This document shows, piece by piece, positions 9,250 through 62,726 of a stretch of DNA of 64,000 nt. The DNA is from Takakia lepidozioides (taxonomy: Eukaryota; Plantae; Bryophyta): the NCBI GenBank assembly GCA_030704615.1, contig CM060731.1, positions 68,324,001 through 68,388,000 on the forward strand, written 5' to 3'. The first letter of the stretch is position 1. Every line of letters begins with the position of its first letter. Under the pieces are notes generated by a model. That model did not search any database, was not told the DNA's origin, and saw only the letters and a list, made by a program, of their open reading frames with translations. The position numbers were made by a program, and so were the translations under genes.

Positions 9250-9285
9250 GGTGAAAGATCTGAGGTACATCCCTGGATAAAAGAT

Positions 9286-11356: not shown

Positions 11357-11399
11357 AACACAGACCTGATAGCATGACCAGTTATAATGTGAAGCCGGA

Positions 11400-14300: not shown

Positions 14301-14927
14301 ATTGACTAAAGAATTCATGATTGTGCATAGAAAGAGTACAACACATTACCCACAGGGAATGGACAGACAGAGGCTACCAACAAAATACTATGTACTATTG
14401 GCTAAGATAGTCAATGCAAACAGAACGGATTGGGATACAAAGCTGCTGACAGCTTTGTGGTCATACAGGACTTCATATAAAGTCACCACTAAGTATACCA
14501 CACCATTCCAATTAGTTTATGTATGGAAGCTTTACCTAGTGGAATTCCTGTTACCTCCCAGAGAACGGAGTGGGGAAGAAGAATGGAATTGCAAGATTCC
14601 TTAAGGTCAGAAACATGAATTATACCATGTGGAAGAAGTACGTGCTGATGCAGCTGATAATATGACCAGGAATTCAGATGAAGAGGAAGGAACAGTTTGA
14701 CGAAAACAAGTTCAAAATTTTTAAGACGGGAGATTTGGTTCTATGGTTGCAGAAGAAGGGAAAAATTAAAGCTTCTAAGCTTAAATCACCATGGAAAAGA
14801 CCTTATGTCATACAAAAGATGTATGATACAACCCCGCCATGTTACAAACATTAACAAAGAAATGCTGGGAAGAGTCAATGCCAATAAGTTAAAGGGATAC
14901 AGTGGTATCCATGACAAACCATTGTAG
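11400..14927 (+). pseudogene. Element B pol: protease, RT, RNase H, integrase (many frameshifts)
   Basis: LIDGGSGVNI (~11478); KKNGKLRVCVNY, SFMDGFSGYNQ and FLDDF (~12795); RNase [19 protein letters not shown]; integrase WWPTLFKD..CQSCDECQ, KWGLDFVGP and SDQG. Confidence 0.92.
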
Positions 14928-15048
14928 CATGATTTGCATGTTGAAACGCAAGAGCAGTCACGGGCTGCGCCAGTGTTACCAACGGAGTATGGAGCACTTG
15001 TCGCTAGGCCAAGCAGCATATATGACCAAGGCGGGCAGAACAAGCGTG

Positions 15049-15270
15049 ACACAGCCTATCACAGCCTATCAAGGCAAAACACAGCCTATCACAACCCATC
15101 ACAATGTGACACAGCCTATCACAGCCCAGCACGGCGCAACACAGCCTATCACAACCTACACCCGCAAGCCTGTCACAAAACACCTATCACAACACACTTA
15201 CCACAGTGCATCACAGCCTATCACAGCATACCACAGTATGACACAGCCTGTCACAGCTCAACACAGCCTA
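15049..15270 (+). repeat. Internal ACAGCC(TATC)-based tandem array after the integrase of element B, same motif as in its LTR
   Basis: acacagcctatcacagcc... repeated. Confidence 0.85.
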
Positions 15271-15561
15271 CTAGGGTTACACGATCCATAGAAACAGTGA
15301 CAGGTGGGCGCACAATAACTTCAGGAAAATGGCTGACGGAAGAAAGACGAAACCAGTTTAAAAATAGACACGTGGAAGTCAGGGTGCGACACACAGCTGA
15401 GAAGGAAGTGCCAAGAACAGGTGTCATCAAGAAAAGAGACAAAGATGGCCTTCAGTACCTACTTAGCGCGTGTCAATTCGGATGAATGGCGGGCCCATTA
15501 ATGAATACGGAAAAAGGGGAACGGAACAAACAACAAGTACAGAAAGCGAAATTCTTGTCAC

Positions 15562-18500
15562 ATGTGTGATCCTAGTGGACAATCCAGCAGGGAAAGCCCA
15601 CTAAAGAAAATTAAATTTAAAATCCAGTCACAACGGTTACAGCCAATCGAAAACAAAAAAAAAGATCAAGAAATTAGAGGGAATTTAAGCGCAAGAGTCG
15701 GCGTCGTTCTAAGTAAACGGCGTCGTCTCGACGGGACAGACCATCAACGCTATAGCTTGAAACTATGGAGGAACTAACAGACTATACGCTCGCAATATTA
15801 CTACGCAGTGCATAGACACGAAAGAACAGAGCGGAGCTTTTCTCTTGATCGATGCTTGCAAGCTCCACAGGCTTACAAGAAATTATCCATAGCTTTTTGT
15901 GGCAACCATACGTTTATGCTTTGTGCACTACAGGCATTTCTTCAATTGTTACAGCCAAAACAGTTCTGTGGTCTAGAAGAAGAGAGTGAGAGGAATGGAG
16001 GAAATCGGGGTGAAGAGCACCACAATTCTGCAAAAACAAACAATTGCTACCCACACGCGATGTAGATACTGAAGGAGCTGAGATTGCAAGGATTGCAAAG
16101 CAAAGATTGGACATTGCACCATAAACAGTACATGTTACAATTTTTACAGAACTTTGAGCCAAGGACAGGAGCAACAACGGTGAAGGGAGTTGAATTAGTA
16201 ATTACTCCCCTATACCTACAGCAATTGTTTCGATTGCCAGCAGGGCAGGTGCATGTGGAGGAGCACAGGGCAAGACTGCAAATAGGGACTTATTCCAAGA
16301 AGGGAGTTTCTTTAAAACTCAGGGTTATGCTTGTACCAAGGCCGTGTACCCAGGGCTTAAGGAGGTAGGCCAGGTATTGAACGTTCTGTTTGCCATGAAA
16401 CAGAACCAACAGTATTTGAGCAGATCCTTCAAGAGGAAATACTCAAAGCCCTGAGGGAGAAGAGGTAGAATGGGCGGACATATGTACAACGCACTGGTAG
16501 AGGAGATGAAAAGATTACAGGTACTGCCGCAAAGTCTCCTATCATAGTGTCTGGCCCAATCATGCTCAAATAATTCTTGATTCTGGCATACTTGATGCGC
16601 AAGAAAGAAAGGAGATGGGAGTGTTTGAGCCAGAAACCACTGCAATGGAAGAGCAAGGCTCTTCACACAGTGAGGGTGGACTAGCAGGGCAGCCCGAGAT
16701 AAGAGGCAGACCAGACGGGGAAAGACTGTAGTGGCGGATCCACTGGCTTCACGGATTCCGCATGATAATTTTCCCAAGCTCATGTGTAGGAAGGGGCACA
16801 GCAGCACAGAGAACTGCTATTACTGGAAGCAGGACCTTTAGAGAGGGGAAGAGGAAGTTACTTCAGTATCACAGCCATCACAGCCAGATGAGCGGCTTGT
16901 CACAAGGTACAAGTTGTCCATGCAGCTCAACCAGAAATAATTGATTTGGAAAAAGAAGGGTTAGATATTCCAACTACAGAACAGATAGTGGCAGAAATTG
17001 AGAAGGGGGACCTTCTCTATGAATATTCTGGTCAGGTCAAGGAGACAGAGATTCCAGAGGTGCAACAGTTGCCCAGGAAAATCCTGAGGTGCATATAATA
17101 CACACACATGTGTCGGAGTGTACCACAGGTAGAATATCAGACACTGCAAGCAGCACCGTGAGGATGAAATGGTTCAGGAAGAAAATCCGGTGGACAATGG
17201 CCTGAGTGGTTCGTGAGACATCACACGGTTGAGGATCAGGAGGAGAACAGCAGCAAACCTCACCATGATGACCCTCAACAGGCAATGCTGATGAGTTCCA
17301 TAGGCAGGACACTTAATTTGTTGGGGACTTATGTCAAATCCCATGTTCCAACTACCCAATTAACAGCCTTGAGAGAGGAACTCAATAAGGAGTTTGAGGC
17401 TCGACTAGCCACTGAGTGTGCAAACAAGGTCGATGAGGAGGTCACTCTCAAGATGCAGCAAGACTTGGAGAATACAGAAGCGGCTTTGCAATTGGCCAAG
17501 GAACAATTTTGAGGCAGGCCTCGCGCAAGACCAGTTGCACGAAGCACATAAGCAACAGCTATACCAAATGCAGGTGCAGCATGAAGCAAGTTGCAAGAAG
17601 TGAATGCAAAACATACGGAGTTGCAGACAGTGCATGACAGGATGGCCATACAATGTGCTACACTCACAACTATGCTTGACCAAACTACAAAAGAAATAAA
17701 CAGTCAAGCAGAAAAAAATATGAAGGCAGAAGCAGAGAATGTTGAGCAAATGAAACTCATTGTCGACATGAAGAATACAATCTGTCGCCATGAGGATACT
17801 TTCAAGCAATACAGGCAGATTGAAGCTGATCAAGAGAAGCACATCGTGGAGTTGCAACAAACGATCATGGCCAATAGAAATGAAATCTCGGTCAATAACA
17901 AGGCTTGGAAGGAAGCCAATAATCTACTTGCTGCCTATGCGAATTTGGTTGAACCTCATGCGAAGCGCATGGAGGCTTTAATACAGCAATTGGATGTGTA
18001 CAAACTAAGAGAGGAACACACTCTCAGAGGAATCACAAGCAACTTGGTGGATAACCACCTTATGCAGGTCTAGTTAGCACAAGGGCCAGTGGAGGGCAAA
18101 GCACCACGAAAGCTCACCCAAAGCGAGATGAATGAGCTCAGATTGCAAGTGCAGAACATTGCCACAACTACTATAGACAATGTCTATAGTAGAATAGCGG
18201 AGTTACAGGAGGATGTAGATGGACTGCAGACTCAAGTGGAGGACCTCACTTCAAATATCGACAAAAGAGTCTATATCCCTCAGGAACAGCTAAGGGCTTC
18301 TTATTTGCAAGCCAGAACTTTGGTTTTTCAGTCTTCACAGGAGGTGCAGGAGATGCCAATGATGCAAGAGCCAGTACCACCAACACCACAACAAGTCACT
18401 GTACGAGTAGCTGAACCTGTTGTTACTACAACCACACCACAGCCACCACAACCGGAGGTATGGGGTAATGCTGCTTTTAACCCACCTAAAACTCCAGCTG

Positions 18501-19532
18501 CAAGAGAGTACAATAGGGCTATGATTATGCCCTTCAACCAAATTCCCATCATGTTGGATTTGGCTTGGAAAGAATTTAGTCCTCCACAGTCATTCGCACA
18601 TTACTACCAAATCATGCGTATTTGGCTGCCAGTGGCAACTAGGACTAAAGTTCTTCCGAACAATCGACATATTGAGGATCATCACTTTGCACAATACTGG
18701 CATGAAGCAAGTACAATGTTGAAGGAATTAATTGCCTTCCAAGTTGTACATGGATTCATTTATACCAAGACCAAGGAGGTAGCAAGTGTTGTCATGGGAT
18801 GCGGGTTATACTACGTTGCTTGTTTTCTGGTACGTTATCACATTGAGCAGCACAAGATGCAATCGCGCTTTCTGAGTTATTCCAATGGGGAAAATTGGGT
18901 CTTACCTTCAGTGCCACCTCATATGTACCTATATGAGGCAAAAGTTATGATGCAAAAGGATTCTCAAATTCGTTCATGGTTTCAAGCGGCCTGGAACAAT
19001 TTGTCAACACAGAAATTCGGCATTGATGATATTTTCTATAAATGACATGTGGCATGGAAATACTTGCACGGTGCACAAGTAATTGGTACCCCACTCACCT
19101 CACCTGGACAGACAAGGAGCTCAGTGTCTTCACCCAATTTTGCTGTTCAGCGTTTACAGCAAGTTTAAAATATAAACTTCCAGACATGGTAGGACAACAT
19201 TGTATGCCCCAGAGGATTCCACAAAAGTTCGACAATTAAAACACTTGAGAGCGATGAGGATTCTGATACAACTAACTGTTTCTTCAACGGATTCTTTTGA
19301 CATGGGAGAAGACTATGCAATTCAGATGGCAGAGAAGAAGCGACGGGGGTCTCCTATGCCTGAAAGGTTACCTCGATATCAGCCTCCAGAGGGCCTCACT
19401 TATCCGGGTAGTGTTCAAACATCTCCGTCAACCAGTGACAGACCTCGGGCTCGTACACACAGTCCGCCACAAAACTCTCAACAACGTCAGAAAGGTGCTC
19501 ACTCACAAGGGTTTGCTAATCGCAATCAGTAA
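15562..19532 (+). pseudogene. Long extra sense ORF 3' of pol in element B (putative plant-transposon-protein domain, coiled coil, unknown C-terminal domain), frameshifted
   Basis: Chain of same-strand ORFs: LQFLQNFEPRTGATTVKGVELVITPLYLQQLFRLP (16084-), heptad-rich 17213-18300, aromatic-rich 18500-19250; ends just before the PPT. Confidence 0.6.
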
Positions 19533-19553
19533 ACCGTGAGGACACGGCTTTTT

Positions 19554-19570
19554 GAGAGAGGAAGGGGTAA
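19554..19570 (+). other. Polypurine tract of element B
   Basis: GAGAGAGGAAGGGGTAA immediately before the 3' LTR. Confidence 0.85.
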
Positions 19571-20561
19571 TGTTAGAGGATTGTCTGGGACTTAGACACT
19601 TATACGGGATCTGTAGGGTACCCTTAATTTTTGCACAGATTGAGACCAACAGGAGCCTTAGAGGTGACAACAGCACACTTGAGAGGGGAGTTACACAGCC
19701 CGTCACAGCCGACACAGCCACACAGCCAGTAACACAGCCCCACACAGCCAACACACAGCCATCACAGCCAACACAGCCACACAGCCCGAAGCCCGACACC
19801 AGCCACACAACCAGTCCCAGCCAGTCACAGCCCAACACAGTCGCGCAGCCAGTCACAGCCCGTCACAGTTTCACACAGCTAGTCACAGCTTGACATAGCT
19901 GTCACAACCATAGGGAACGGATAGCAGGACAAGGAACGACTGAGGGGAACAACATCTACGAATGGAACATGTAGTTCAAGGGGGACGGTTAGTGAGGAAA
20001 ACGGTTAGAACAACGGGTAGGAAAATAAAGCGAGGAGCAAGGACAGGAAGGGGGGATTTTTCGGGAGAGGACGGGGCGAGGGAACTTGGGGGTGATGCAT
20101 GAGAGGGGATCGGGCGGAGAGCAAGAACGGAAGCAAAGATGGAGAGCACGGTGAAGGAGGAGAGATGATTAGTAGATGCTTGTGATATGCAAAGCTGTAG
20201 TGATATTGTAGAGCAGATTAGAGACACAATGGCTTCGGCCTGATACCTGATAAATCATAATCTGATACTTATACGATACAATCACACCGTGTAGAGAGAT
20301 CTGAGTGAAGCTGTGGAATGAATGGATGAGTTGATGGAATCCGATAGATTGATGAAGCAAACTGATACTTAATTATCAATAGCCAGGTAGCTAACATGAA
20401 TGCGGAAAGGAAAACAAATAGGAAACACCCCCATGATACACTAGCTGTAGGACATGACTGATTGTTCTGAGCGGGCTGAGTACTTAGAGATTTCCAACTC
20501 TTCTATCTTGGAGTTTCCGCCTCGGATAGCGAAGGGATGGGTGAGTAAAAGCCGCGCGACA
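19571..20561 (+). repeat. 3' LTR of element B (991 bp)
   Basis: TGTTAGAG...GCGCGACA followed by the TSD CCTGG. Confidence 0.97.
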
Positions 20562-21554
20562 CCTGGACAAGGAGCTGAGGAGAAGGGTGCATCTCTCCTA
20601 CAAGTAGCCCAACCCACCTTAACAAATGCGTTTTTGCTGGCAGAGCGGATAGAACAGCGGGTGATCATGGTGGGATTTGGCAAGGAGACACAACGAAGTG
20701 GAGTTCCTAGCCAACAACAACCAACTCCCCAACGTGCTCAAGGCAACAAGGGGGCTCAGATGAAGCCTAGGGAAGGCCATAGAGGATCTCAGATTCAGAG
20801 GTCTCTCCCTTCATTCTCAGGCCAGCAACAGACGAGTGTGTCATGTTGGGATAGTGGAGGACCCCATGTCAAGAAGGATTGCCCGGAGAGAGGCAAAGGG
20901 CCGGCACAGGCACAGTCTACACAATTACAGTGTGGGCATTGTGGAAAATATGGGCATGAGGAGGCCCATTGTTATGGCTTGCATCTTGAGCTACGGCCAG
21001 GCCAGTTCCAAGGAAACAATGGTGGCCAAGGACGAGGCAATGTAGTCCAGAGAGGTAGAGGAGGCAGAGATCGGGGTGGAGTTCATAACCAAAACGAAGG
21101 AGCACAGGGTCAGGGTCAAGGTCATGACCAAGGCATGGTGGATAGACTTGCCCAGCTAGAGCAACGTCTTGCTGCCATGGCCACTACTCATGTTGCACCA
21201 GCTCCAAGGCTTGAGGTTCAAGCCCGGCCACCTGCACAACCTCCTATGCCTAGGGAAGATCAAATTGGTATGGGCTTCATGTGTGGAGCCGCACTTGCAG
21301 GGCCATTGCATGTATTGGACTCTGCTGCTGCTGTCACTCGAGCAGCAACGCGTGCTCCTAAGCCAAGAGGAGCGGATGTGGATTTTGATCCACAAAGGGG
21401 GGAAACAAGTCATCAGACAAGGCTTCCACAGTCCTTTACATTGGCTGAGACAGTGCCACCTACGCCATCAATGACACCCATTCGCCCAAGTGTGTCAGAG
21501 GTAGAGCCACGAGTGACATTGGGAGAGTTGGTATGGCTCAGGAAATGCCAGTAG
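20562..21554 (+). pseudogene. Element A gag, C-terminal part with zinc knuckles
   Basis: CWDSGGPHVKKDC and CGHCGKYGHEEAHC knuckles; RGRGG-rich tail. Confidence 0.85.
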
Positions 21555-22660
21555 GTGGTATTGCAAAGCAAGGTGCAGCCAGTACATTGTTGGGGGCGAC
21601 TATGGCAATTTGCCAAACTCCATTGTTTTCTGCCACGACAATTACAATGCCGGGGATGCGGCCAGCTGCAGTGTTTAGACTGGCAGTTGCACTCTGTGAG
21701 AGTGGTGATGCATCGGTACTATCTGTGGGGATAGCGGATCAGGTACAGTGCATAGATGCCTTGGATTCAAGGGTGACGACAGCCACAGCTGCGCCATGGC
21801 AAGCGGCAGCTGCAAGGTTGCAGGAGTTGCCAGCTAGATTAGCCATTGAGCGTAGTATGGTAACTCCTGGGGTAGTCCTGGTGGACAATCAGGATGATGT
21901 GTTTCAGTTGGGTGGCCCAGCCGGGAGGAGGTATAGGCCACTGCGGGTCTTGTTGGACTCGGGAGCACAACCATTGATGTTGGGGAGAGTAGCAATTGCA
22001 AGCTTGAGCCTTACAGAGGCGGATTTGGAGCCTTGTCCTTTCCAAATTCAAACATCTTTGGGCGGTTCAGAGAAGGCACGATGGATTACATGCCATGAGC
22101 TCTTCATTCGATTGCAGCCAGATCATCTTACAGATGGCTCTGTCATGAGAGCTAAAGCCATTGTTACGGACGGGATGTCTTATGATGTGCTTGTTGGTGG
22201 GGCTGTGTTATACCCGATGGGCCTTACTTTGGACTTTTGGGAGGAAACGGCATCCTACAGGCCGGAATGGCAGTCAGGGGATGGTCGACGTGCACTGCTC
22301 CCAGTGCGGTTTATTGGGAATGTAGCGGTGGATCATAGGAACATGATGCCCACATTGGCTGCATTCTCAGGGGTGGTGGCTTGGGGTGGTGAGCTCTTGG
22401 AGGGCAATAGTCATGCAGATGATAGGCCACCACCTGATGAGAACAAACAATTGGCATACAAGGCTGATTTGCTTCCTCATGTGTCTATTCATATCCCATT
22501 GTGGGGTACAGTTGGGAATTTGCATCGAGTAGCGTGTGTGCACCAAGCATGGCAGGAGGCCTATCCATTGGTGAGTGAGGGGAGTTCAGTGATATCACCC
22601 GGACCTCCTCAGTTAGCTCCTTTGGACATAATGCCCATTACCTGGCAACCACTTGACTCA
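21533..22660 (+). pseudogene. Element A pol N-terminus with aspartic protease
   Basis: RVLLDSGAQPLML (~21950) and YDVLVGGAVL, the retropepsin motifs. Confidence 0.85.
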
Positions 22661-22663
22661 GGG

Positions 22664-23610
22664 ATTTGTTTGCTAGACATGTTTGGATGCATGAGCACTG
22701 GGCTTGCAAGAGTGTTGCAAGCAGGGATTGAAGTACGCAAGTACTTGTATGTGGAGAAGGATGAGATAGCTTGACATATTTCTATGCACCACATCGCCTT
22801 GCTCACACACCCGTATCCTGAGTTTTTGTCTCTCTCAGCAATTCAATGGTATCAAAAGGCCTTGCTAGCAGACATTAATTTGCTGGGGGCGGATGATTTG
22901 GACCGGCATGGTGCCATTGACTTGGTGATAGCTGGATGGCCTTGCCAATGACACTCTCCCGCAGGTCATGGGAATGGCTTGCATGATGCACGATTGCATT
23001 TGTTTTGGGAGATGTTGAGAGTGTTGCGTGACTTGCAGATGAGGCAAGTGCAACCTCTAGCCTATATCTTGGAGAATGTTCCTCTTATAGGGGACTTTCG
23101 GACCAGGGTTATAGCCAGTGTGCATCAGGTGCAGTCTTGGATTGGATCGGTGGTGCTATTGGATGCAGCAGTGGTGGGATCACAAGCGCATCGACCTCGA
23201 TTATGGTGGACCAATCTTGCACCACCTGAGCTGCTCAAGAGAGCATACGATTCCATGCAACGGCCACCCAATCTCAAAGTTGAGGGCATTTTGGACCAAG
23301 GGAGGCAACCACAGAGGGTGCGACATGATGACCGTCCACCTTTAGCAGTGGTAAATCGAGTGGGGCAGCCACGTGCAGCCTTGCCTACTCTCATGAGCTT
23401 TCCCTCGTCTCATGCTTTTTGAGACAATGGTCCTAGGTTGATTTGGGACAGTGTGCTACAGCAATTGGCGGAGCCCAATGCGGATGAGCAAGAGCTGGGC
23501 AATGGGATTTGCCACGGGCACTACAGCTGTGTCAGCTCTGTCAGAGGCATCACGACGCCAGGTGTTGGGTCAGGAAATGGATCTCAATTGCTTGACATGG
23601 GTCATTGGCT
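22664..23610 (+). pseudogene. DNMT3-like C5-cytosine DNA methyltransferase domain embedded in the pol of element A
   Basis: Ordered C5-MTase motifs in the protease frame: I ICLLDMFGCMSTG, II KYLYVEKD, IV IDLVIAGWPCQ (PCQ 22940-22948), VI YILENV (ENV 23072-23080), VIII SQAHRPRLWWTNL. IX/X follow after a frameshift (E..ELAMGF..G.T...RRQVLGQEMD). Three in-frame stops. Confidence 0.92.
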
Positions 23611-24146
23611 TGTGCATGGTTGAGCAACGGAGATTGCAAACATTGGTGGCTACTTCTGCACTTCCATTGGATATTGCACCATCTCTGCCAACCGGGACGG
23701 TGGAGGCAGTGAGTGGGGGCGAGCACAAGATCATTGGGTGCAAACACCCATGGCAGATATGGGATGAGATGCGCAAAGAAAGAGTCATTGGATCTCTCAA
23801 GCAGCAGTATGAGGAGTGAGGAGAGCCATACACTGAGGATCAGTTGGAGGCCAAGGTGGCCAATGTTTTTGAAGAGGTTGAGAGTGTTTCTTCCCCAGAG
23901 GATGTTCTCAAGGTGACTATGGCGGAGCAAGTGGAGGCTACGCCACGGTCAGGGTGGGCGGATAAAGCCCAAGAGGTTGCTATCTAGAAACCAAAGGATG
24001 CGTCTCCTACTTCCAAGCCTGGTGTACCCAAGGTTGTAGTCACTGAGGACAACTGGGAACCAGATGTTGGACCTACAGTCATTGGAGGAGAGAGACGGAG
24101 GATCCAGCGATTTCTAAGGGCTTATAGAAATTGCTTTGCCTTCGGT

Positions 24147-24846
24147 TTGAAGGATTTGGGGAGTTTGAAGGGCCAGGAGATTCGTATTGATTTGGCAAGT
24201 GACACGCCAATTTTTCGAAGGCCCTATAGGTATAGTGATATAGAGAGGTCTTTGATCCAGTCACAGGCTATGGAGTTGTTCGAAGCTAGATTGGTAGAGT
24301 TGTTAGTCGGGGAGTATGTCTTGGCAACGGTGATGCCAGCTAAGAAGGATATCTATGGCAATTGGACAGAAAGGAGGATGTGTGGGGACTACCGTCCTAT
24401 GAACCGTCAGACTAAGCCCGATAGATATGCCATGCCAACATCAGAGGAGATATTTGATGCCATTGGGCATGCAAAGGTGTGACAAGCAAAAGACGGCATT
24501 CTGGGGGATTGACCAACATGGGAAGGATTGCTTGTACCAATGGCGGTTCGTACCGTTTGGGTTGAAGAATGCTCCTACAGAGTTTCAGAGGGTCATGGAT
24601 AGGATTCTTGTGGGGCTAGAATTCGCCCGGTGCTACATTGATGACATCATCATCTTAAGTGCTACAATTGAGGAGCACGAGAGACACCTTCAGATGGTGT
24701 TTGAGCGCTTGAGAGCGCATGGGTTGAAATTGCACCCTGGGGAGTGCAAGTTCTTCCACAACCAGATTGAGTATCTGGGCCACATGATATACCTTCGAGG
24801 ATTGGGTATTCAAAAGACGAAGGTGGAGGCCATTGCATGCATTCCA
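24147..24846 (+). pseudogene. Element A reverse transcriptase (first part)
   Basis: RRMCGDYRPMN, PFGLKNAPTEFQR, CYIDDII (~24634); a short deletion at ~24480 removes the LDLxxGYHQ motif. Confidence 0.92.
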
Positions 24847-25039
24847 GGGATGCCTCGGCGTGAGCCTGGTCACGTGAGCGCAACTGCGCTCACGCCACGT
24901 CACCTTGCGCCAATGCCACGTCACGGGGCTCACTCCACGTCATCACACGTGAAGGCCGCGTCACCACGCGCCCAGAAAGAAGTGGAGTGTATTCCCGCGG
25001 ATTGGCAACCCTTTACCGCGGAAACAAGCTGGACGATAT

Positions 25040-25400
25040 AATAAAGGCATTGAATAAAGGATGGATGAATGTACTGTTGGATGATAAATAGATGGATGAG
25101 TGTGAAAAATGAATGTAGATGGATGAATGAGGGATGGATAAGAGTAAAATGGATGAATGTATAATGGATGTTGAGCAATGACAAAAATTCATGAAAGGAA
25201 GATGCATGACCAAAACTTTTGACGAATGCACAACGTATATGAAATGAGTGTGGAAGGTTTGTGGGGGGATTAAAGAGTACAGAGGATGAATGTACAATGG
25301 ATGTTGAACAAAGGAAAAAATTCATGAATGGAGCACGCATGAATACACTGTAGATGAATGCACAATGGATATGAGAAGAGTCAGGGAGGTTTGTGAGATG
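25040..25400. repeat. Low-complexity (ATGG/ATGA)-rich repeat region in the left arm of element C
   Basis: Recurrent atggatgaatg motifs, plus a longer duplicated unit (aaaattcatgaa..gaa..tgcatga). Confidence 0.6.
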
Positions 25401-25535
25401 GATTCATACATATTGTAATTTAAAAATGAAAGTTGATTCTGTGATTATTATTTGTTCTAAAGGAACAACTACGGTGGAGGAAGGGGATTCAACGTTTTCT
25501 AGATAGTATGAAAATGAATATTAAAAGAATATAGT

Positions 25536-28500
25536 TCAGTCTGACTCAGAGTCAGTACAATGTATCCCCACTTCCTCAGCATCTAAGTCTAAGTATTTTA
25601 GAACACCGGATCCACGCTGGATACACCTACGGCTGGGCAGTAAAGTCAGGGGATAGGGACTCGGCCGCGTGAAGTGTCGTTGCTTCGGCATAAACAGGAA
25701 GCAGAAAATTGGAAAGGGGCTGTTGAAAACAGACTCGCCAGAAATGACTGTATCTCCTGAAGATCCACCGCTGCCTTTCCTGAAAGACAGCCTGAAAAAG
25801 TTATTACTGTAACTTTGATGTTATTGAGAAATTGAGTATGGCTCCCAAAGAGGGTTTAGCACTTACTCACATGAAAAGTCGTTGTCGACTTGCTTATCTT
25901 CGGGATCGTCATCATTTCGAATTTGAATCCAATCAGTCTGTGTGCCTAAAGTGGAGCCAGACAAAAGGGGGAGGAGCACTGTGTTGTAGAGGTCAGAATC
26001 ACCCTCCATGCCAAAAAAGGCTTCTTCCGCCTGCCTTGCATGCATGGTAAGTTGCTCCTGCACCAGACATGAGGACATGAACAGTTTGGTGGGGGGGATT
26101 TAAGCAGATGAAACTGTTGAAAGAAAACCAATTCGGAAGGGAAAGAACGAACCTGTGGACACAGAAAGATCGACCACCCGTGCAGAGTGGTGGCTGCATG
26201 ACTCCAGCAGTATTTGCATGAACGCTGGGGACTTTTCCTTTGCACCTCTCCAGGGAGTGCCATCTGGTCTCTTCAGAGTCTCACTGGACTGCATGAAGTT
26301 GTACAAAATGTCATCGACATGGGGCTCATAGGGGGGGTTGACGAAACAACCCTGGTCAGAAATCTCAAAGCTGCGGATGGAGGATGGTGTCTTGGAGGTG
26401 CGAATCCTGCGCAGGCAAATCGCCTCGAACATCCTCGTCTGCCAAAGATAGCAGGTTAGTGTGGTTGACAGCAGCGCACTTTAGGGGGGGGGGGTTACAC
26501 AGCCCATCACAGTCCGACACAGCCCGTCACAGCCAACACAGGAAGTGTGTACATCGGCTATTCAGAACTCAGACACAAAAAAATCATTTTTATCACGAAT
26601 CGGTGATGATCGGTGTCGATCATAACAGATTCTACTAGAGTGGAGCTGCAAAGAACATTGAAACTCATCATGAAAGCACAAGTAGAAGGGAGACGGCATA
26701 CCAGCTGACCAGGGAAACCCCCTTTCACAAGGTAGAGGTGGTTCACACAATTCCATATGCGCAAAACTTCAAACCCTGAAGACTTGAGGTATGATGCCAA
26801 TGCTCGACGACTATCATTGTCACATGACTGAAAAAGCAGAAGTGTCCCTGCATCAGAGAGGAAGTTATTACAGAACCCGAACACCCAACTCCAGTAGTTG
26901 TCCTCGAATTTGTTCCAGCCTGGCGTCTTGCCCTTTGGAAGAACTTCTGGCACAGCCTGGCCATCCGGGATGTCGAGAATGACAATGTCGGCCGCATAAG
27001 TTTTCTGCACACCGCACACGAAGGTGGGACCTGTGCTCACCTGCAACAGACATGTTTTTTATAAGAACGATGGCAAGAATGTTTTCAAAGAACGAGACTG
27101 AAATTTTGCCAACGAAACTTTCAGAGAAAAAGGAAAGAAACTAGAATTCTCACCAGATTGAGGAATGAGATTATATTGTCCTAGGTAGGCGAAGGCACCC
27201 CAGTGTATCCTCTCTTTCAACTCTGCATCATCGACAGCCAACCCTCATTAACAATTTTTATCTCTCCTGCCGAATCAGAACGGGAAGGGTGTGGCTTGGC
27301 ATCGAACACGCACTGAACAGTGCGGGTATATCTTCCAGCAGTAAAGTCCTGCCCACTCTCCAACTCCTTTTCTTTCTCCTTCCCCTTGTCCTTTTCCTTC
27401 TCTTTGGACTTGTCTTTGTCCTTTGGCTTTGCTGGTGAGATGGCTATGACATCAACAACCTTGTCTTTTGGTTTGCGGCCCGCCTTCTTTCCCTTCTGCG
27501 GCGTTCCCTGAGCATCAGGCTCCTTGGCAGCCAATGTTGCTATGTTTCGTTGGTACTCTTCGTCAGTCAAAGGCGCCAACATCTCAGCGTTATTGTTCAA
27601 GTATTTCATATGTTGTTCTTGAAAAGTCGTGTGCTCCGGTGGGCAGTCAAGGTACCACCCACAGTCTCTGAAGTGAGAAGGACTCCAGTCCTTCAATATC
27701 CCTGCAATATACATGGTTGGATCGTTTGTAGGGTCCGACCACATGTCAAGATAGTCTGGAATTCCGCTCAGGTGATTTCCTTCCATAAGCACATATTTCG
27801 TGTACCTGAAAAAAATGAGATAAATCCCAACCCACCAAAGCGCTTAGTGAGTAAGATGCAAGTAGAACAGAATGAAAAAAACATAGAATGAAATGGCTCT
27901 GAGAACTGCTCCAAGGACCTTTCAGGACCACACGACTGCTCCAGATGTGAATGTTGTCAACGCCATTCAAAACATTCCATTCAATGATACTGTAAATACA
28001 CCCTAATCCAGGTGAATGCAAACTATCGTTTTGGAATGACACAGACATAGAAGTGAATGTCGTCAACGACATTCACTTTGGATTTGTGAATACACTCCTA
28101 ATCAAGCCTAATTATTCCTCAAATGAAGCAAAATCAAAGGATGGAAATCATAAACTCGAGTAAGGAACCCTCCCGGAAAACTCAATGCACATTCATAACG
28201 AACATATCACTGAGGACCTCACAACAACACTGTATGTGAATGACGTCAACGCCATTCACAAAAATACCAACAAAGAACCAATTACTTAGCTCCCAATCCA
28301 TGTAAATTCAAATTGTCGCTGGTGAATAATACAGACACAGAAGTGAATGTTGTCAACGACATTCACTTTGGATTTCTCATAACAAAGCTTATCAAGCCTC
28401 CAGATTCCTTGCAAGAGGCAAAAACAATGCAGAACAACTGAATGTCTGCATTGACATTCAGCAAAATGAAGTGAGGAACCCTCACTGTAAACTCTATGGA

Positions 28501-30426
28501 CATTACAAAAATTTACATAACTCTGAGGACCTCTCAACAACTCCGGATGTGAATGTCGTCAACACCATTCAAGGACATTATCAATTCTAATCAGGGACAC
28601 TATAATTACACCCTTAGATCCTAACCAGGTGAATTCATATACTCGCTTAAGAATGACTCAGACAAAGAAGTGAATGTCGTCAACGACATTCAATCTGGAT
28701 CTATGATTACAATCCTTATGAAGCCACATTTTTTCCCAAAAAAAGCAGTAGAGTTTCAAGTATGACATTGCACTTGTACACAACTCGCATCATGGCCCAC
28801 TCTCCTCCAACCTGACTGTCAAAGTCGTTGGACCGTAAAATGTTACCATCTTTGGAGAACTCCCGGAAAAAACAGTATCTCCAGGTGAGACCTCTCCACT
28901 TCCTTATGTATGCCTCCAATGACATTTGGGGAGGGGAAACAATCGAAATGTTCAGGTCCTTCAAAGTCTGATCCAGCACATGACAGCGCGCTTTTCGAGC
29001 TGCAAATTGTATATTTGTCAGAATTGCAAATAAGATACTCATCACATACTTGAAGAGAAGAAAACGGCATGTTTGAATACACACCTGACTCCAAAATGTA
29101 GCCTTGTGGAGCCAGTTATCAAACACCAAATCACTGATTCCTTCCACCTTTGTGCCAGGCTGTATGGTGCTCTTTGGGAACTGATTCAAGTCCTTTACTG
29201 TTTGATCTGAGTTCCATATCTCCAGCCACCTTATTTTTGTTTGTGGGTCGACCATCGATATGGCCAGCTGGTGCAATTTCTCCTGCTGCATCTCCGGATG
29301 CACATGCTTGTCATAGTGTGTTTTGATCTGCTGAAGGAACTCAGAACCAAGTCCAGGATCTACTATTCTAAGCTGCTTTCCGAAGGCGGACATCAATTTG
29401 GTTCTTCGCATTTCAAACTCCTTCTTTATTGCAGCTTCCACACCCTTTGATGTCCTTAGTTCCTCTGGTGTAGTGCGGTAATATTCGGATTTTCCCTTCT
29501 CAGCTGTCTCTGCCTGTTCTTGCTGCATTACTCCAGAAACGCCTCTCGTGTCAAAGAATACCAAGTGTCTGCAGCTCTTCCTGTTTCGCACTTCTTGATT
29601 ATATTGGGTGGGAGTACTGTCCAAAAATCATCCAGCTTCATCAGACCAATCCTCTGAATTCGGAATAGTGTGTGGACCAAGCTTGTTGTCACATGCGATT
29701 TCTCTGTCAATCTGCAAAAACATTGGAAACATTGCATTCCTTAACACTGTTTTTTGGGGATTAATAAGACAATACAGAGGGAATGAAATCTCCTGGATGA
29801 CTTACTTGTTCACATCGTGCATAGCTGTAAGAAGCCTAGCGATGTCGTTTCCAGGATCCAAAACCATTGCCTCCACAACAACATGCTTGTCTTTGTCTTT
29901 CGCATGGTGTTTCTGAATGTATCCCATCCATGCCAGCAATCGGTGGTTGCCGTCCCAGACGTAGAACATGTGGTTGCAGAATTGTTGGGTGTTCTTTCCC
30001 ATCATGAGCCCAACTCGAACTCCTCATTGGCATCTTCCAGCACTCATCCCAGTTATCACTGATCTCTGGAGACACTAATGTGTTTTTCCCATTTATATCC
30101 GTCAGTGACACATAAAAAACTTGTGCACCAAGTCCATATCCATGCACAAAATCACTCTCCAATTTTGTTATGTCATGGGAAAGAGGTGGACGCACAACAA
30201 GCATAGATATCATCCGGCACAGAGGGATGTCCAGACGCCCTCCAGATACGAGCATGTCCTTAATAACCTCCTGAGAGTTTACCTTCTGGAATGACATGAG
30301 TTCTTTCACCTTGTCAAGGTAGTGCACTTCAGATTCATCTGCTTCATCTGTATTCTTTGAGCTTTTTCCGGACTCGTCCCCATCTCCAGATCCTTTCCCC
30401 TCTGATCCTGTAGGCTTCGACCTCAT
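25536..30426 (-). pseudogene. Spliced gene: N-terminal ParB/Sulfiredoxin-like domain plus C-terminal beta-class N4-cytosine/N6-adenine DNA methyltransferase-like domain (a few frameshifts)
   Basis: FYVWDGNHRLLAW (DGNHR 29940-29954). MTase motifs in beta order: ADIVILDIPDG (motif IV position, DIPDG 26960-26974), FLSDAGTLLLF, then WRGAKEKSPAFMQILLESCSHHSARVVDLSVSTG|ATYHACKAGGRSLF-GMEGD (motifs X-I-II; compare HPTxKP..L...I..ss..gd.VLDPFxGSGTT..AA...GR..IG.E.D). GT-AG introns that restore frame: 29712-29805, 27806-28773, 26439-26701, 26058-26152; others less certain. Confidence 0.8.
27947..28693. repeat. Six copies of a 24-bp palindrome GTGAATGTCGT-CA-ACGACATTCAC in the long intron of the ParB-MTase gene
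   Basis: Copies start at 27947, 28053 (perfect arms), 28236, 28343, 28549 and 28670, two per ~300-bp higher-order unit. Confidence 0.92.
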
Positions 30427-30474
30427 AGTTTTCTACACGATGCCATTCAATTCTGACTGAGTAATTTGCAAATA

Positions 30475-31034
30475 GTGAACGGCGGTAACGACCATCACTC
30501 TGTCTCCAAGAAACTCACTATGAATGGTGTGAAACGATTCAGCACATCTACACAAGCAAAGCTGATCCTGCCGTATTCAAAACAAAAGCGAGAGCGATAG
30601 CGAACGGCGTTAACGACAATCACAAAGATAAGGACCTGCTGGATCGGTGTTGTGTAATGACATCTATGTGTAAGTGATTGGCGGCAATGACATTCAGTAT
30701 AGTTTAGGGTGGACAGTAAGTGCAGATTATTCAGATTGACTCCATTGTGATTACCGTTGCCAGCATGGGAAGAGGAAGAACTGCTTGAAAGGCAATCAGA
30801 CAGACTGTATGATCTGAACAACGATGATTGACGGTATGCCGACCCTCACTCTCTCTTCAAACACATAGGTACATAAATCTCACGAGGAGAATCGAATGGC
30901 GTTAACGACGCTCGCAATTCAGTAGACTTCAATCACATGTTCCTGCTAAAGAAGGGAAGAGGAAGGACTCCTTGAAAGGCAATCAAACATACTGTATGAT
31001 CTGAACAACAGTGAATGACAGTACCGATAGTCAC
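30475..31034. promoter_or_regulatory. Divergent intergenic region with ~5 degenerate copies of the same 24-bp palindrome
   Basis: GTGAACGGCGGTAACGACCATCAC (30475), GCGAACGGCGTTAACGACAATCAC (30600), ~30824, TCGAATGGCGTTAACGACGCTCGC (30892), GTGAATGACAGTACCGATAGTCAC (31011); a ~70-bp direct repeat at 30767 and 30954. A regulatory role is inferred. Confidence 0.55.
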
Positions 31035-31103
31035 CCACTCATTGTGCGGTAAACCCTTAGCAGAGGAGTAGCAAGCAAAACACCAAATCCAGTCCTTCCT
31101 ACT

Positions 31104-34100
31104 GTGGTTGGAGAAGCTGATGAAGAAGAGATTTGTAGTGTCATTCCAAAATTGCGGGCGATGGGAGGAATGGCTGGATTCAAAAGTGAGTTGCGGGGAA
31201 TTGATTGGGAATCTTTGAAGCAGGTGCTTGTGAATTTCTTGCCGTCGACTTTTGATGGCGATATCCTATTTGAGTTGCCTCCTCCTCCGCGAGTTGGAGG
31301 TGTAACAATCATGATGCATGGAATGGACAAGAAACACGACGGGCACCCGTGGTGCAGAACAAAAACATCCAATATTCAGAATGATGACAAGCTTGTTTTC
31401 AGGAGGACAGTTTGCAATGGACACCTTAGGTGTGATAATTTGAATTGCAGACACTTTCTTCAGTCTGGGGTTTATAATCAAAGCGAATGGGAGGGTCTGG
31501 CGGAAAATCCATTTCAGCCTGGGACTGCCCCTCCACCGGCAAACACTTTTGTCTGCAAATTCTGCAAACTTGTGCCATCCTGCTTGGCGCTCTGCGGAGT
31601 AAGAATGTACTATGTTGTCCACCGTTTGAAAACAATGACAAGAGCTTGTGTGCATTTTGGATTCCATAACCATCTTGTCTCGAAGGGGGATTACAGGGAG
31701 AGTGTTGAGACAGTATCGAGGTTGATTAAACAGGAGTTTGGGAGAAACCCATCCGCAACAACATCTGCAATTGCTCTTGGCGCAAGCAAGTCCTTCTTGG
31801 AAAGCCATATTTTGAGTGAAGGGGATTCTGTGGGGACTAAACTTGACGGTGCAGCATTGGACCTGGTCATGGATCATTTCTCCACTTTAAGTTCACCTAA
31901 CATTCAGCATCAGATCAATGCATTGAGAATGGGCTCTGGGATCAGAGGCTACATAGACAACATTTTGGAATTGAAACGAGTGAGCAAGTACGATTACATC
32001 CAGGACAATGTATTCCCAGGTCCAGGTGCCATCAAAGTTTTTCTTTTCAAAATGTCGATTGTTGGGGAGGGCAGTGGGGTTAGCCTCGTGAAGCGGATGC
32101 AGAAGACTGGGGACTTGCAGAACTATTTTCTTATGTTTGATCATGTGAAACGAGTGAAGGATTGGACAACAATGGCTTGTCATGTCTACGATCCAGTGTA
32201 CCAACGAGTTATGACAATTGCAGTTTGTGACATGCAATCCGAGGATACGGAGTTGGGGTTGTCTTGCAAGGGAAAAACCTGCCTCCTCCAGCATTTCAAT
32301 CTCCTGAAAGCTCAGATGTGTTCCCACCTTCACGGGCCAAACGGTTGGAGGAGATGGCTTCATCACTACGGAAGGACGCATAGTTCCATGCACACATCTG
32401 GCACAATCATCTGCGCAGAACCAGAACTTGTGGTTCTTGGCTTCTGGTTGACCGTATGGACCGTGAAAGTCGGAGCAGGAGTTCGGGCACCACCTCTGGA
32501 TATAGATGAAGTGCACTTCTTGAATTAGTTGCCCTGATCGCTGTACATTTCACACGAGACCCTACACTTGTGCGTTCTATGTGCCAAACGTGATCGGGGC
32601 ATGCGGACTCAAGCACATCAAGGGGGTTGTTTCTCTCCTGCACCATTTCCGTGGCACTGTTTGATGCTGGAGCTTGCCGTTGTGTTGGAGGTTCCGGACA
32701 TGGAGCTGTCATGGGGAACACGAGGCTTCGAGAAGTTATCACGGTCTGCCCTGTGGGAATCTGAATCCGAACCAGGTGGAGTGTTCAATTTCCTCTTACA
32801 GGAGCTGAATCTCTCCTCCCCTTCAAGATGTGGAACTCTAGAAACAAGTGGCGTTCCCTGGGCATACATGCTCACCGCCCGTGCTATCTTGATTGGATCC
32901 CCAGATCTGTTTGCAGCACGCAACATCAACTCCCATTTGTCCGGATCCTTGCCACCAACCCCACCTCGTAAGAAATCACGGTATCGGGTTTGTTGTTGCA
33001 AGGCATGTATCAAATCATCTGTTGTTGCCACATACAAATCCCGACCTCGTTTTCCAGACTGCTGCAACCATGCGTTGTGCACAGTTTCTGCCAAATTGCA
33101 AGATGGCATGTCCGCCATTTCCTCAATGGACATGTTTTGCAAAGTGCAGAACCACACTTCAAAACAGTGAACAGAAAACAACATAAAGAAAGCGAGGACA
33201 CAATAAAATGGAAAGCAAATGTATGAATAAAGCAATAAATATAAGCCTCGTACCAATGGCATGGCTGCTCCCCACTGTCTATACCGGAAGTGCCAAAACG
33301 CCAGCCAATCTTCCGATGCTCTCATACTCTCAAGTGATGCAGCTCCAGAAGAGAACCACCAGGCACGAATTGTCTGGAACAAAGTATTCGCCTCCTTCAT
33401 TGTTCTAGCATCTTTGTACTCTTTGCACAATTTACGGTGCTGAGTCTGCATCTCTGGTTTGATGTCCGACTTTGTATGTTTTTCCAGAGATTGTGTCCAA
33501 TGGAATAGACATGTACGCTCTCTTCCTGGCATAGGCACTTTTGGGTCGCCCGATTCGAAGACAATACGAGCAGCATTGAAATTTGCTTCAGCACTATCCG
33601 CCATGAAACCTGCAAAATTTGGAGATGGCAGCCCATGACACGTATCAGGGAATTCCACATGTCTAAGTAAGGAGGCAACCACACCTACCATGCTTTATAC
33701 TACCACTGACATTGTGTAATATATTGAGCTCTGTGCTACTACTTCTGCGTCCTCCCGGGTCCCCCCGACAAATCCTGACTTGTGGCCAACCAAACGAGAT
33801 GGAAAGCTCGTTCGGCGTTTCCCTCCAACCGCTGAACACTTTGGCAAAGTGGAGTCCGCAAGAATGCTCCAAGCTCGTGTTGGAAGCACCACAGAAGTAC
33901 CCAATCCAGGATATGGTCGGGTATTCACAATCATCACTTCCACATCTGCTGTTCATGACAGGACCTACGACATCACGGTTTCCAATTTCCCCAATTGCAC
34001 ATGTTCTAATTTTGTGAATATGCTATCAACCAGTTTGGGCAAGAGAGGTAAATTCATACCCTGCAATCATTTGTATTTCATATTTTTGAAGAGGATGGTT

Positions 34101-34193
34101 TGCGATCCCAAACGTGACAACTTCATTTACCAGGCCACTATGAGTTTCAATGAGGTCGATACTCTTTTGCAGCGGGATACAACACATGGGTAG
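31104..34193 (+). pseudogene. GCM-MULE-SWIM transposase of element C, broken by an internal inversion (~32250-33700)
   Basis: GCM-like DGHPWCRTKTSN..FRRTVCNGHLRCDNLNC..CKFC..C...HFGFHNH; first catalytic D in FDHVKR (+). FMADSAEANFNA..RTCLFHW and CNLAETVHN lie on the minus strand (32618-33691). SWIM YDITV..CTC...CNHL is on + (33960-34080). Confidence 0.85.
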
Positions 34194-34828
34194 CATCAAC
34201 TATGCAATGTGGTATGTGGACGACCATGATTTGAAATGTGTAATTCACATCAATTCGTCGGCGGTGCAATGATATGGCCTCCAACTATACGGAGTGAGCT
34301 CTGAGTGACAACTTTTAGGTAGTGCACATTTGTCATTGCACCGTTCGAAGTCTACATGTCTTGCTGTCGCTATGCACTACAATCATCTTTTGAAGATGAT
34401 CCTAACTCTCATTGTTATTTGAGGAGGGAGGAAGGTCTTCCCGTGGCAGCCTTTATGGCGCACACTTTGTGAGGATATTTTTTCGTCCTCGTAATTGTAA
34501 AAGTGAAACAAGCATTTGTAATTGTACAATGTTGGATGCTGCAATTGTAGGCCTCAACGCTCATCTTGATTCTATTTAGGCAAGATTCCTTGCATTAATT
34601 CCACGGTCATAGGACCATCCACGGTTATAGGCGGCGCATGTTAATGCTGACGTGGCAGATGACGGAGAGTGCCACGTCATCATTTACCGCCACATCAGCA
34701 TGCTGACATGACGCTCACGCCACGTCAGCGTGTGTGCAGGCTCACGCCACGTCAGCTGGCGTGAGCGTACGCTCACGCCACGTCACTCCTGCGTGAGCGT
34801 ACGCTCGCGCGCTCACGCCATTGCGTCG

Positions 34829-36915
34829 TTGCATGCATTCCACGCCCCATCGATGTTAGCAGAGTTCGTGCTTTCATGGGACTGACAAACTACTATTGAC
34901 GGTTTGTCAAGGGATTTAGCAGCATTGCAAAGGCTCTTACCAAGTTGACCAAGGTGAGTCAGGAGCGGCATTGGGAGGAGGAGCAGGAGGAAGCCTTTGA
35001 GGAACTCAAGGCTCGATTGACTTCTGCGCCTATTCTGAGGCGGCCTATTCGGGGGCGGTCTTTCCAGCTACATACGGATTGGAGTATGTTGGAGCAGTGC
35101 TCACACATGTGGATGATGAGGGAAGAGAGTTCGTAGTGGCATATGCTAGCCGCTCGAACAATGATGCCGAAGCGAAGTATAGTTCCTATGAAGGGAAGTG
35201 TCTAGCTGCAGTATGGGCAGTGACACATTTTAGATGCTACCTCTATGGCAATCTCTTCACCTTTGTCACGGATCACCAACCATTGAAGTGGTTGATGGAG
35301 TCAGACAAGCTTACAGGGAAGCTTGCACGGTGGGCATTTATGCTTCAAGAATACGACTTCTAGGTGGTGCATCGAGCCGGTATAGTCAATCGGGATGCAG
35401 ATGGGTTGAGTCGTAATCCATGCACGAGCAAGCATGATGATACTGGAGCTCGGTGGCATGGTGAGACGAATGAGGAGATGGTGCCAGGATGGTACGCATC
35501 TGCCTTTTTATGCATTCTAGCAATGGGAGCTCAAGCTGGTCCGTCCCATGCGATTGGTCATAGAGATAGTGTGCATGACGATCCAGAGATCAGTGAGGAG
35601 CTTGGTGGTACTAAGGATGTACATGAAGATGCAGCAGTGTTGGCCTACCTTCGTACTAGAGAGATAACAGCCAGTGTGACTGCTAAGGAGAGAGATCGGA
35701 TCCTACAACAAGCCAAGAGGTTCAAGTGGTAGGGGACTCACCTACTCCAAGTATGGGAAGATGGACGAGTGATGATTGTGCCTCATCCAACACAACGAGC
35801 GCGATTGGTACGCCATGCCCATGAGGAGTTGGGACATTTTGGGGTGCGGCGCACTAATAATTTGTTGCAAGGACAATATTGGTGGCGGGGCATGCACACG
35901 GATGTGCAACAGTTAGTGGCAAGGTGCATGGTGTGTGATAGAGTGCGGGCTTCTTTCAATGCACCTACTCCACAATTGCATCATTTACCCATTATGGGTT
36001 TGGGCTATCATTGGAGTCTTGACTTCGCAGGCCCATTGCCACTAACAATTCGCCATAACAAATATGTGCTGGTGATGGTGGAACATTTCTCCAAATGGAT
36101 TGAACTGGTGGCATTGCCTGACAAGGCAAGTGAGAGGGCTGCATATGCATTCTTAGATCGAGTGCTTAGCCAATTTGGTGCTCCAGCCGAGGTACCAACG
36201 GACTAGGGGAGAGAGTTCTTGGGGGAGTTTTTGGCTTTGTGTGAACAAGCCTTGATAGATCACCGCACTACTTCTCGGAATCCTCCTGAGGCTGATGGCT
36301 TGGCCGAGAGGGTTGTGCAAACAGTCAAACGAGGCTTGCGCAAGTATGGCTTGTAGAAAGGACACTTGGGAGATTGGGACCTTCAGCTACCTTGGTTTGC
36401 CATGGGTTACAGGTTTAGCAAACAAGCATCACTTGCCTCGTTCTCGCCTTATTTCCTTCTCTTTGGCCGAGAGCCAGATTTGTCTGCATCTATTCGAAGG
36501 GAGATTGCAGTAGTCCTCAACCTTGATGATCCGGATGTGTGGACACAAGCATGTGCCCAACGGGCACAGTTGTTCAAGAGTCATGCCTATGGCTTTTGAG
36601 AACCTTGCTATTGCCCAACACCGAGACACATTGAGGTATGCCACTATACGTGGAGGGGGATATCGGCCAGGTGTTCGGCGTTTCCATCCTGGGGACTATG
36701 TGTATTTGCAGTAGACAACGCCTACGACCTTGGATGTCACAGCAGGTCATGTGATTCTAAGGGTCCGGGAGGTGTTGCCTTCAAGAGTGTTGATTCCGGA
36801 GGGTCGAGATGATATGGTATGGAAGGACCATGTGCGCAATTGTGCGCCATGTCACCTTCCACATGTGGATGGGAGGATAGATCCCAACCTTGCAGTGGTA
36901 CCTGCAGGGCTGCGT
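34829..36915 (+). pseudogene. Element A RT end, RNase H and integrase
   Basis: VRAFMGLTNYY*RFVKGF; LHTDWS, VAYASR, YSSYEGKCLAAVWA, TDHQPL; HEELGHFG..YWW..CMVC; WSLDFAGP, TD*G, ADGLAERVVQTVK. Confidence 0.93.
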
Positions 36916-37065
36916 TGCATGCTATGTGGGCATGCTGGTGGTGCCGCGACCATGTTGGTGTGTGACAAATGCTCAAGGGGGTGGCACATGGGGTGCTTGA
37001 CACCGCCACTTGAGGAGGTTCATAGTGGAGAATGGTTGTGTCCACGATGCCTTGGACAGAGATAG
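36916..37065 (+). pseudogene. PHD finger at the C-terminus of element A integrase
   Basis: CMLCGHAGGAATMLVCDKCSRGWHMGCLTPPLEEVHSGEWLCPRC, a complete C4HC3 PHD, in frame with the integrase tail. Confidence 0.93.
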
Positions 37066-37261
37066 TGGGGCATGACAGTGGCGAGGTTGACAAGTGATCC
37101 AAGGTCTAGCTAACGAGAGTTCGATGCCATGGACACCCAATTGAAGCCATGGATTGTAGGAAGGCGAGTAACGATGGGGCTACTTTTGCACCCGGCCTCT
37201 TGATCTATTGACTTCAGATACTGGGACTTGGGCGATTGATGACCAAACAATGAACTTATTG

Positions 37262-58107: not shown

Positions 58108-62726
<4,619 letters not shown>

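Follow-up and report, generated by a model that had tools for sequence, protein, structure and literature searches.

Why would a retrotransposon carry a DNA methyltransferase, when cytosine methylation normally silences transposons? The question is raised by an element of the bryophyte Takakia lepidozioides, which we analysed in a stretch of 64,000 nucleotides (assembly GCA_030704615.1, contig CM060731.1, positions 68,324,001 to 68,388,000, forward strand; hereafter the window). The original prediction, made from the letters alone, had placed here, at 21533..37065, a gypsy retrotransposon with a DNMT3-like methyltransferase inside pol and a PHD finger on the integrase. The element is a decayed Ty3/gypsy copy which encodes gag, protease (PR) and a DNMT3-like C5 methyltransferase (DNMT), followed by reverse transcriptase (RT), RNase H (RH), integrase (IN) and PHD. 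The predicted interval lies inside it, but the element is larger, extending from 3574 to about 37262, with gag from near 6811 and two nested insertions, B and C (Table 1). Six-frame reading puts the protease motif and methyltransferase motifs I, IV, VI and VIII into one frame (21449-23518, with 3 stops; DSG at 21956, DMFG at 22676, GWPCQ at 22934, ENV at 23072, AHRPRLWWTNL at 23186), while motifs IX and X follow after a frameshift near 23500, and RT, RH, IN and a complete C4HC3 PHD lie beyond. Thus, the DNMT sits between protease and RT, chiefly in the protease frame, and a full finger follows the integrase, just as predicted. The domain calls were also borne out by Pfam searches of the window open reading frames (ORFs), with RVT_1 at E 1e-22, RT_RNaseH at 7e-30, Integrase_H2C2 at 5e-17, rve at 1e-8 and PHD at 6e-11; DNA_methylase, on a 156-residue fragment, stays just below its cut-off of 22 with 21.7 bits (E 1.5e-4). 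The protease, which has no Pfam match in the window, is assigned from its DSG motif and from alignment to Marchantia P0013 and P0009, and the relative P0003 gives a weak Asp_protease_2 match. Pol continues in register after element C, and the insertion site of element B (loose end at 7415) is crossed uninterrupted by other copies of the family.

The window copy is dead, being interrupted by 12 or more premature stops and some five frameshifts, and it is truncated at its 3' end: the depth of related contigs falls away at about 37262, and the sequence beyond is unrelated. Owing to this break it lacks the polypurine tract and the repeats that we call B1, A2 and B2 below, and a repeat search found no A2 or B copy within the window. 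A depth step at about 6116 had been considered as the 5' end and was abandoned after the 5' repeat A1 was located at 3574.

Is the arrangement peculiar to this copy? With the DNMT fragment as query, 25 longer proteins were recovered, among them records of Marchantia, Calypogeia and Sphagnum with the order gag-PR-DNMT, and the PHD piece returned 38, five of which combine RT, RNase H, integrase and PHD in one ORF. Among 80 metagenome loci fetched by their DNMT, 21 extend to the PHD, the complete order is visible in 10 and the DNMT never occupies a different place, although loci so picked are unable to reveal copies without a DNMT. Such a bias does not apply to L081, which was fetched by RT/RNase H patterns and is intact, its two ORFs split by TAG CAA TCA; it is the sole close relative long enough to test among the 39 loci fetched in this way, and it carries the DNMT. 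The order gag-PR-DNMT-RT-RH-IN-PHD is a trait of the family. In an RT-RNase H tree (model LG+G4 with no mixture model, long branches flagged; 36 rows including L081 from a 103-row set, with 12 added outgroups), the 33 family rows come out as a single clade, with support 100/100, apart from the 15 other gypsy RTs. This clade holds elements of Klebsormidium, Closterium and Tetraselmis; the window copy groups with Marchantia and Calypogeia (100/98), and Coleochaete stands just outside (96/90). A DNMT tree of 58 rows, in which those with the domain behind RNase H were thinned to 32, gives the same neighbours, so that the two phylogenies agree on the relatives of the window copy. Beyond these, pol searches reach Klebsormidium, Closterium, Coleochaete, Tetraselmis and Riccia, and the DNMT profile matches 397 clusters at E<1e-30, one of them from Scenedesmus. 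The protein searches named no vascular-plant member, which is weak evidence of absence; among viral contigs neither the DNMT nor P0051 found a relative, and an RT-profile scan gave distant RTs only.

Several observations stand beside this picture. A sub-clade including Scenedesmus P0262 and P0341 carries the DNMT between RNase H and integrase, not before RT; it contributes 73 of the 160 full-length DNMT matches and forms one group in both trees, and two of its members have a G-patch in addition. L081 and L084 (GTDB record CADCWO01) represent an intact plant-type retrotransposon binned in a cyanobacterial metagenome-assembled genome, the pol of which has been deposited as cyanobacterial protein CAA9586175.1. 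The Marchantia gene models Mp8g17980, Mp2g13720, Mp1g18210 and others are pieces of such elements annotated as host DNMT or PHD proteins.

As the order is family-wide and the RT falls into one clade with algal elements, the sequences identify the element as land-plant kin of KnitGypsy-Dnmt3 (Gypsy-DNMT3) of Klebsormidium nitens and not as a one-off capture; it extends a described lineage, which is, as the original prediction supposed, present in land plants. Both share the Ty3/gypsy order PR-RT-RH-IN with a DDE integrase, and an unrearranged, intron-less DNMT3-like domain in gypsy pol under purifying selection, their RTs lying in one clade (PMC5890265). The DIRS-like repeats mentioned there in a figure legend correspond to split repeats in relatives of our element, of which the window copy keeps A1 only (PMC5890265). 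Here RT follows the DNMT in frame behind a conserved stop; the Klebsormidium protein P0107 is a fused gene model. The two differ in range: the published account reports K. nitens only (PMC5890265), while here members occur in land plants, Closterium, Coleochaete, Tetraselmis and, in a sub-clade, Scenedesmus. The text of that paper and the three of its supplements covered by the search mention neither the PHD nor target duplications, priming or the stop codon. In the parts of other sources that we covered, a 2019 opinion held that methylase-encoding transposons do not occur in 'land plants, such as tracheophytes' (PMC6338049), passages of a 2026 preprint and of PMC12344493 speak of 'streptophytes' and leave land plants unnamed, and the REXdb paper mentions none of PHD, methyltransferase, Marchantia or Klebsormidium. 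Literature that names these elements in bryophytes or explains their ends was not found in a search that covered few subscription papers. The stop, the self-priming match and the split repeats with 4-bp duplications described below thus go beyond the papers searched, and are probably shared with the algal elements.

What can be said about the enzyme? Its profile has DNMT3A, DNMT3B and DNMT3C as best PDB relatives (E 2e-19 to 1e-13), followed by DRM2 (about 1e-8) and only then by bacterial enzymes including M.HhaI, in agreement with the predicted DNMT3-like nature. The window domain is 41% identical to K. nitens P0107. By column count, the catalytic Cys and Glu are present in 149 of 149 distinct full-length domains and the RxR motif in 148. 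The ratio of nonsynonymous to synonymous divergence (dN/dS) between families is 0.12-0.20 for the DNMT, compared to 0.17-0.33 for the protease, and about 0.9-1.0 among near-identical dead copies, as decay predicts. Comparative sequence data thus support purifying selection on the DNMT as a conserved trait of the family. Some points weigh on the other side: synonymous divergence between families is near saturation; the AlphaFold model is of low confidence (predicted local distance difference test, pLDDT, 49.6), its Foldseek matches to DNMT3A/B adding little beyond sequence; and the Klebsormidium DNMT showed no de novo methylation in yeast, a result its authors call inconclusive (PMC5890265).

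The DNMT is set apart from the downstream domains by a stop codon. Of 56 loci spanning this region, 54 have an in-frame TAG or TAA that separates DNMT from RT, and CAA CCN comes next in almost all of them; the other two, which represent one insertion, have TAC. Since 55 of the 56 loci form one close family, only this family, L035, L081 and the window count as independent cases. Three families have CAA after the stop, and the contexts in L035 (TAG CAA CCA) and L081 (TAG CAA TCA) match exactly the readthrough signal CARYYA (PMC3441728). We are therefore fairly confident that the stop would be read through, which would make the DNMT as abundant as Gag and leave RT, integrase and PHD scarce. It must be said, however, that the window context, AAA CCA, departs from CAR YYA, and that the stop is not universal, as the distant relatives P0070, P0084, P0101, P0102 and P0204 have DNMT and RT joined.

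The PHD finger lies beyond this stop. Its nearest solved structures are the fingers of CHD4, KDM5 PHD1, BHC80, AIRE and UHRF1, a type which reads the unmethylated N-terminus of histone H3. In PHDs that read H3K4me3, a Trp of the aromatic cage stands two positions ahead of the zinc His; here this position is Gly in 110 of 123 PHDs and Trp in one, and Asp follows the third Cys in 110 of 123. We thus lean towards a finger that would bind the unmethylated H3 tail and steer integration away from H3K4me3 promoters. The Klebsormidium integrase P0124 has this finger too, 45% identical across 106 residues, so it is ancestral and no land-plant novelty. While the original prediction was right that a writer and a reader are both present, their positions on opposite sides of the conserved stop argue that they are probably not one unit, and that guiding integration is a likelier task of the PHD than guiding the DNMT. 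Chromoviruses and CopiaMBD likewise bear a chromatin reader on their integrase polyprotein (PMC6673714), but theirs is a chromodomain or MBD and not a PHD; PHDs have been noted in many retrotransposons (PMC6673714). The window RT lies outside the group with the Tarenaya chromovirus P0159 and hence does not place with the chromoviruses.

How does such an element prime its reverse transcription? The window A1, at 3574-3940, was located by applying rules derived from relatives, its 367 nucleotides comparing with 339 and 359 for repeat A of two other families. Directly after A1, the sequence is complementary to a site about 180 nucleotides upstream within A (176-184 from its end), over 11, 17 and 13 nucleotides in three families, the window having the 11; a complement of this length is reached at only 2 of 5164 CA sites in the window. 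The other lies at 16038-16220, inside element B, with a spacing of 183 nucleotides, and may be chance. In L062 and L081, a TATA-like word precedes the predicted primer site in A. Because three families keep the pairing with three different sequences, this covariation favours self-priming in the manner of Tf1, and the element RNA very probably would prime its own reverse transcription. The primer-binding site of Tf1 and Tj1 is likewise complementary to the RNA 5' end (PMC4600332), here as predicted, and the plant Tcn1 clade comprises related self-primed Ty3/gypsy elements (PMC6317226). Tf1 and Tj1, however, have ordinary long terminal repeats (LTRs) and no DNMT (PMC4600332), whereas here the LTR is split at integration.

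This split is seen in relatives alone, since truncation has removed the 3' end of the window copy. The relatives have no LTR pair, being laid out as A1-ORFs-B1-xx-A2-B2 or A1-ORFs-B, with A beginning TGTCA and B ending GACA; among nine copies with both ends, 4-bp target duplications are exact in seven and have one mismatch in two. The polypurine tract directly precedes B1 and the primer site directly follows A1, which defines B-xx-A as the LTR made by reverse transcription; inserted copies nevertheless start at A and end at B. As these split repeats carry 4-bp target duplications, the DDE integrase is likely to make its cut at a palindrome within the LTR. The putative attachment site is GACA-GC/AT-TGTC in mid-LTR, and this joint is unchanged between two families that share 50% identity in their DNMTs. 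HIV-1 integrase, too, can cut a palindromic joint of two LTRs end to end (PMC1905944), but as a side activity at the joint of cDNA ends, while here the joint is inside the LTR and apparently the normal attachment site. The layout resembles the A1-ORFs-B1-A2-B2 split direct repeats of PAT, TOC1 and Ngaro (PMC4157794). In contrast to those elements, the present ones have TG...CA ends, 4-bp target duplications and a DDE integrase in place of a tyrosine recombinase: of 21 long relatives searched with Pfam, 19 have rve, and a recombinase family turned up neither in any of the 21 nor in the scanned window ORFs.

How the A2|B2 joint arises is less clear. It comprises one nucleotide in three copies and fillers of 16 and 21 in two, one filler opening with 9 nucleotides of the primer-binding site and the other resembling the polypurine tract at its end; of the two filler copies, L052 is rearranged. 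Such variable joints with primer-site- and purine-tract-like remnants fit a joining of cDNA ends, and we slightly favour a scenario in which the ends would be joined at A2|B2, probably into a circle, and the integrase would cut the GACA-xx-TGTC joint within the LTR. The short form A-ORF-B can arise after insertion by B1-B2 recombination, as in one case the long form L070 and the short form L027 occupy the same insertion site with more than 5 kb of common flank, although no clean crossover point is visible in the single B of L027. Two findings sit uneasily with end joining. The 1-nucleotide spacer of three of five joints may simply be inherited, and A-B-xx-A-ORF-B was seen at none of 24 5' ends (20 distinct), in contrast to B-xx-A at 5 of 22 3' ends, an absence that a circle leaves unexplained, since two equal joints should yield both forms. 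Both would be accounted for if the split repeats were copied from RNA as in PAT and Ngaro, with a transcript reaching into B2, the A2|B2 joint being inherited and the integrase using the ends of linear or templated circular cDNA without cellular end joining: B-xx-A-B would arise on the 3' side alone, and the A1-B1-A2-B2 layout matches those elements (PMC4157794). The two filler joints, with ends as joined cDNA predicts, speak against such templating, which we regard as somewhat unlikely, and end joining remains our preferred reading.

Other explanations concern the coding region. One might suspect that the window copy alone captured a host DNMT3 or received it as a nested insertion, as two other nested insertions do sit in it; yet the DNMT has the identical position in liverwort, peat-moss and algal relatives, the two trees give the copy the same relatives, and L081, fetched without recourse to the DNMT, together with the named proteins already refutes the idea, to which we assign virtually no probability. 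Neither a DNMT missing from other copies nor a DNMT forming a separate insertion, the outcomes that the original prediction had named as fatal to it, was thus encountered. Pol, for its part, could be expressed by reinitiation or splicing in place of readthrough. An ATG two codons past the stop in the peat-moss-like family would allow reinitiation, and in three of three tested cases no stable hairpin follows the stop; but L035, L081 and the window have no such ATG, and the recurrent CAA and exact CAR-YYA contexts point to readthrough, making this route quite improbable. As to its target, the DNMT is proposed, as in the original prediction, to methylate the element's own new copies. Whether a packaged DNMT would methylate new cDNA, which would then resemble host DNA or enter pre-silenced, we consider evenly balanced. 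Alternatively, the DNMT may act on chromatin, be it integrated copies, rival transposons or host genes, or serve as a nuclear DNA-binding or decoy protein. Expression at the level of Gag would yield much more enzyme than a handful of cDNAs requires, the yeast assay showed no activity, and de Mendoza et al. list host benefit and other roles as open (PMC5890265). However, the DNMT lies within the particle polyprotein in both known positions, and would so be kept with the cDNA, and its catalytic residues are invariant, so that we hold action away from the element's own cDNA to be unlikely.

Taken together, readthrough, self-priming, integration from an internal joint and a DNMT acting on the new copy make up an explanation that we judge a little better than evenly poised. 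More tentative is the wider proposal of one clade across the green lineage with a novel route, comprising self-priming, cDNA end joining, mid-LTR opening, pre-methylation by a DNMT3 at Gag level and PHD guidance to chromatin with unmethylated H3K4, and inherited from charophytes into liverworts and mosses; in this combination it falls short of being probable. What is at stake is a lineage that keeps an intact methyltransferase from chlorophytes to bryophytes despite the silencing of transposons by methylation. Copies in the model liverwort Marchantia and the intact two-ORF L081 make the open questions testable, namely the targets of a transposon DNMT, insertion by a DDE integrase from an internal joint, and PHD targeting of LTR-type integration. 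Given their split ends, such elements would probably be missed by annotation tools that rely on LTR pairs.

Table 1. Parts of the methyltransferase-bearing element and its nested insertions, in window coordinates.
Feature	Position	Strand	Remarks
5' repeat A1 (TGTCATG...TTATCA; LTR as defined by reverse transcription, minus its B part)	3574..3940	+	start word as in A of two other families
Predicted RNA 5' end and self-primer, within a hairpin	3757..3767	+	exact 11-nt complement of 3940-3950
Predicted self-complementary primer-binding site, not of tRNA type	3940..3950	+	
Long 5' leader	3941..6810	+	short motif 6342-6370 common to the distant element L081
gag, 5' part, 2 stops	6811..7420	+	58% identity to Marchantia P0013 residues 2-217
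Nested LTR retrotransposon B, not part of the system	7421..20556	+	~1 kb LTRs 95% identical, target-site duplication CCTGG
gag, 3' part, two Cys/His knuckle-like motifs	20562..21554	+	
Aspartic protease	21866..22276	+	DSG at 21956
DNMT3-like C5 methyltransferase, unrearranged motifs I-X	22664..23621	+	3 stops and 1 frameshift
In-frame TAG at the conserved stop of the family (predicted readthrough)	23985..23987	+	context TAG AAA CCA
Reverse transcriptase	24030..24846	+	small deletion and frameshift near 24480
Nested ~10-kb DNA transposon C, not part of the system	24847..34828	.	14-bp direct repeats 24833-24846 / 34829-34842
RT connection and RNase H	34843..35420	+	
Integrase: H2C2 zinc finger, DDE core, C-terminal region	35787..36860	+	
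PHD finger (C4HC3) and pol stop	36916..37065	+	
Conserved 3' non-coding motif, 38 nt	37161..37198	+	32/38 nt shared with L081; also in L062

The 38-nucleotide motif after pol is common to three families (window 37161-37198, L062 about 10107-10145, L081 about 6749-6786). Rfam gave no match at window 37000-37400 and one chance match in L062; the motif and the region past the stop fold no better than shuffled sequences (z -1.3 to +1.3).

The remaining contents of the window are other transposons and host genes. In element C (24847-34828), a transposase-like ORF matches SWIM weakly (E 0.62), and the opposite strand bears a spliced gene that contains, near 29960, the word YVWDGNHR, which we take to be ParB-like. 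The end of this gene (26103-27058) resembles N4/N6 methyltransferases, with an Atlas lead of 0.93 to PF01555 clusters and no Pfam or PDB support, and would make element C a second methylase-carrying transposon inside the first. A palindrome of about 25 bp in element C recurs at 28051-28692 and 30476-30917. The spliced gene resembles the accessory gene of Ectocarpus Sola1-1 (PMC12477816). The LTRs of element B (7421-20556) contain 10-bp tandem repeats, and its additional ORFs at 17585-19045 match no Pfam family. A CACTA element at 37812-49654, with terminal inverted repeats, Transposase_21 and Transposase_24, is nested in a presumably Harbinger-like remnant, one end of which lies at 49968-49978. 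Two host genes with introns follow, a P450 at 54300-56905 and an SSF-family, urea transporter-like gene at 59647-62726; the neighbours named in the original prediction, a CYP716-like gene and DUR3, are confirmed at the level of these families.

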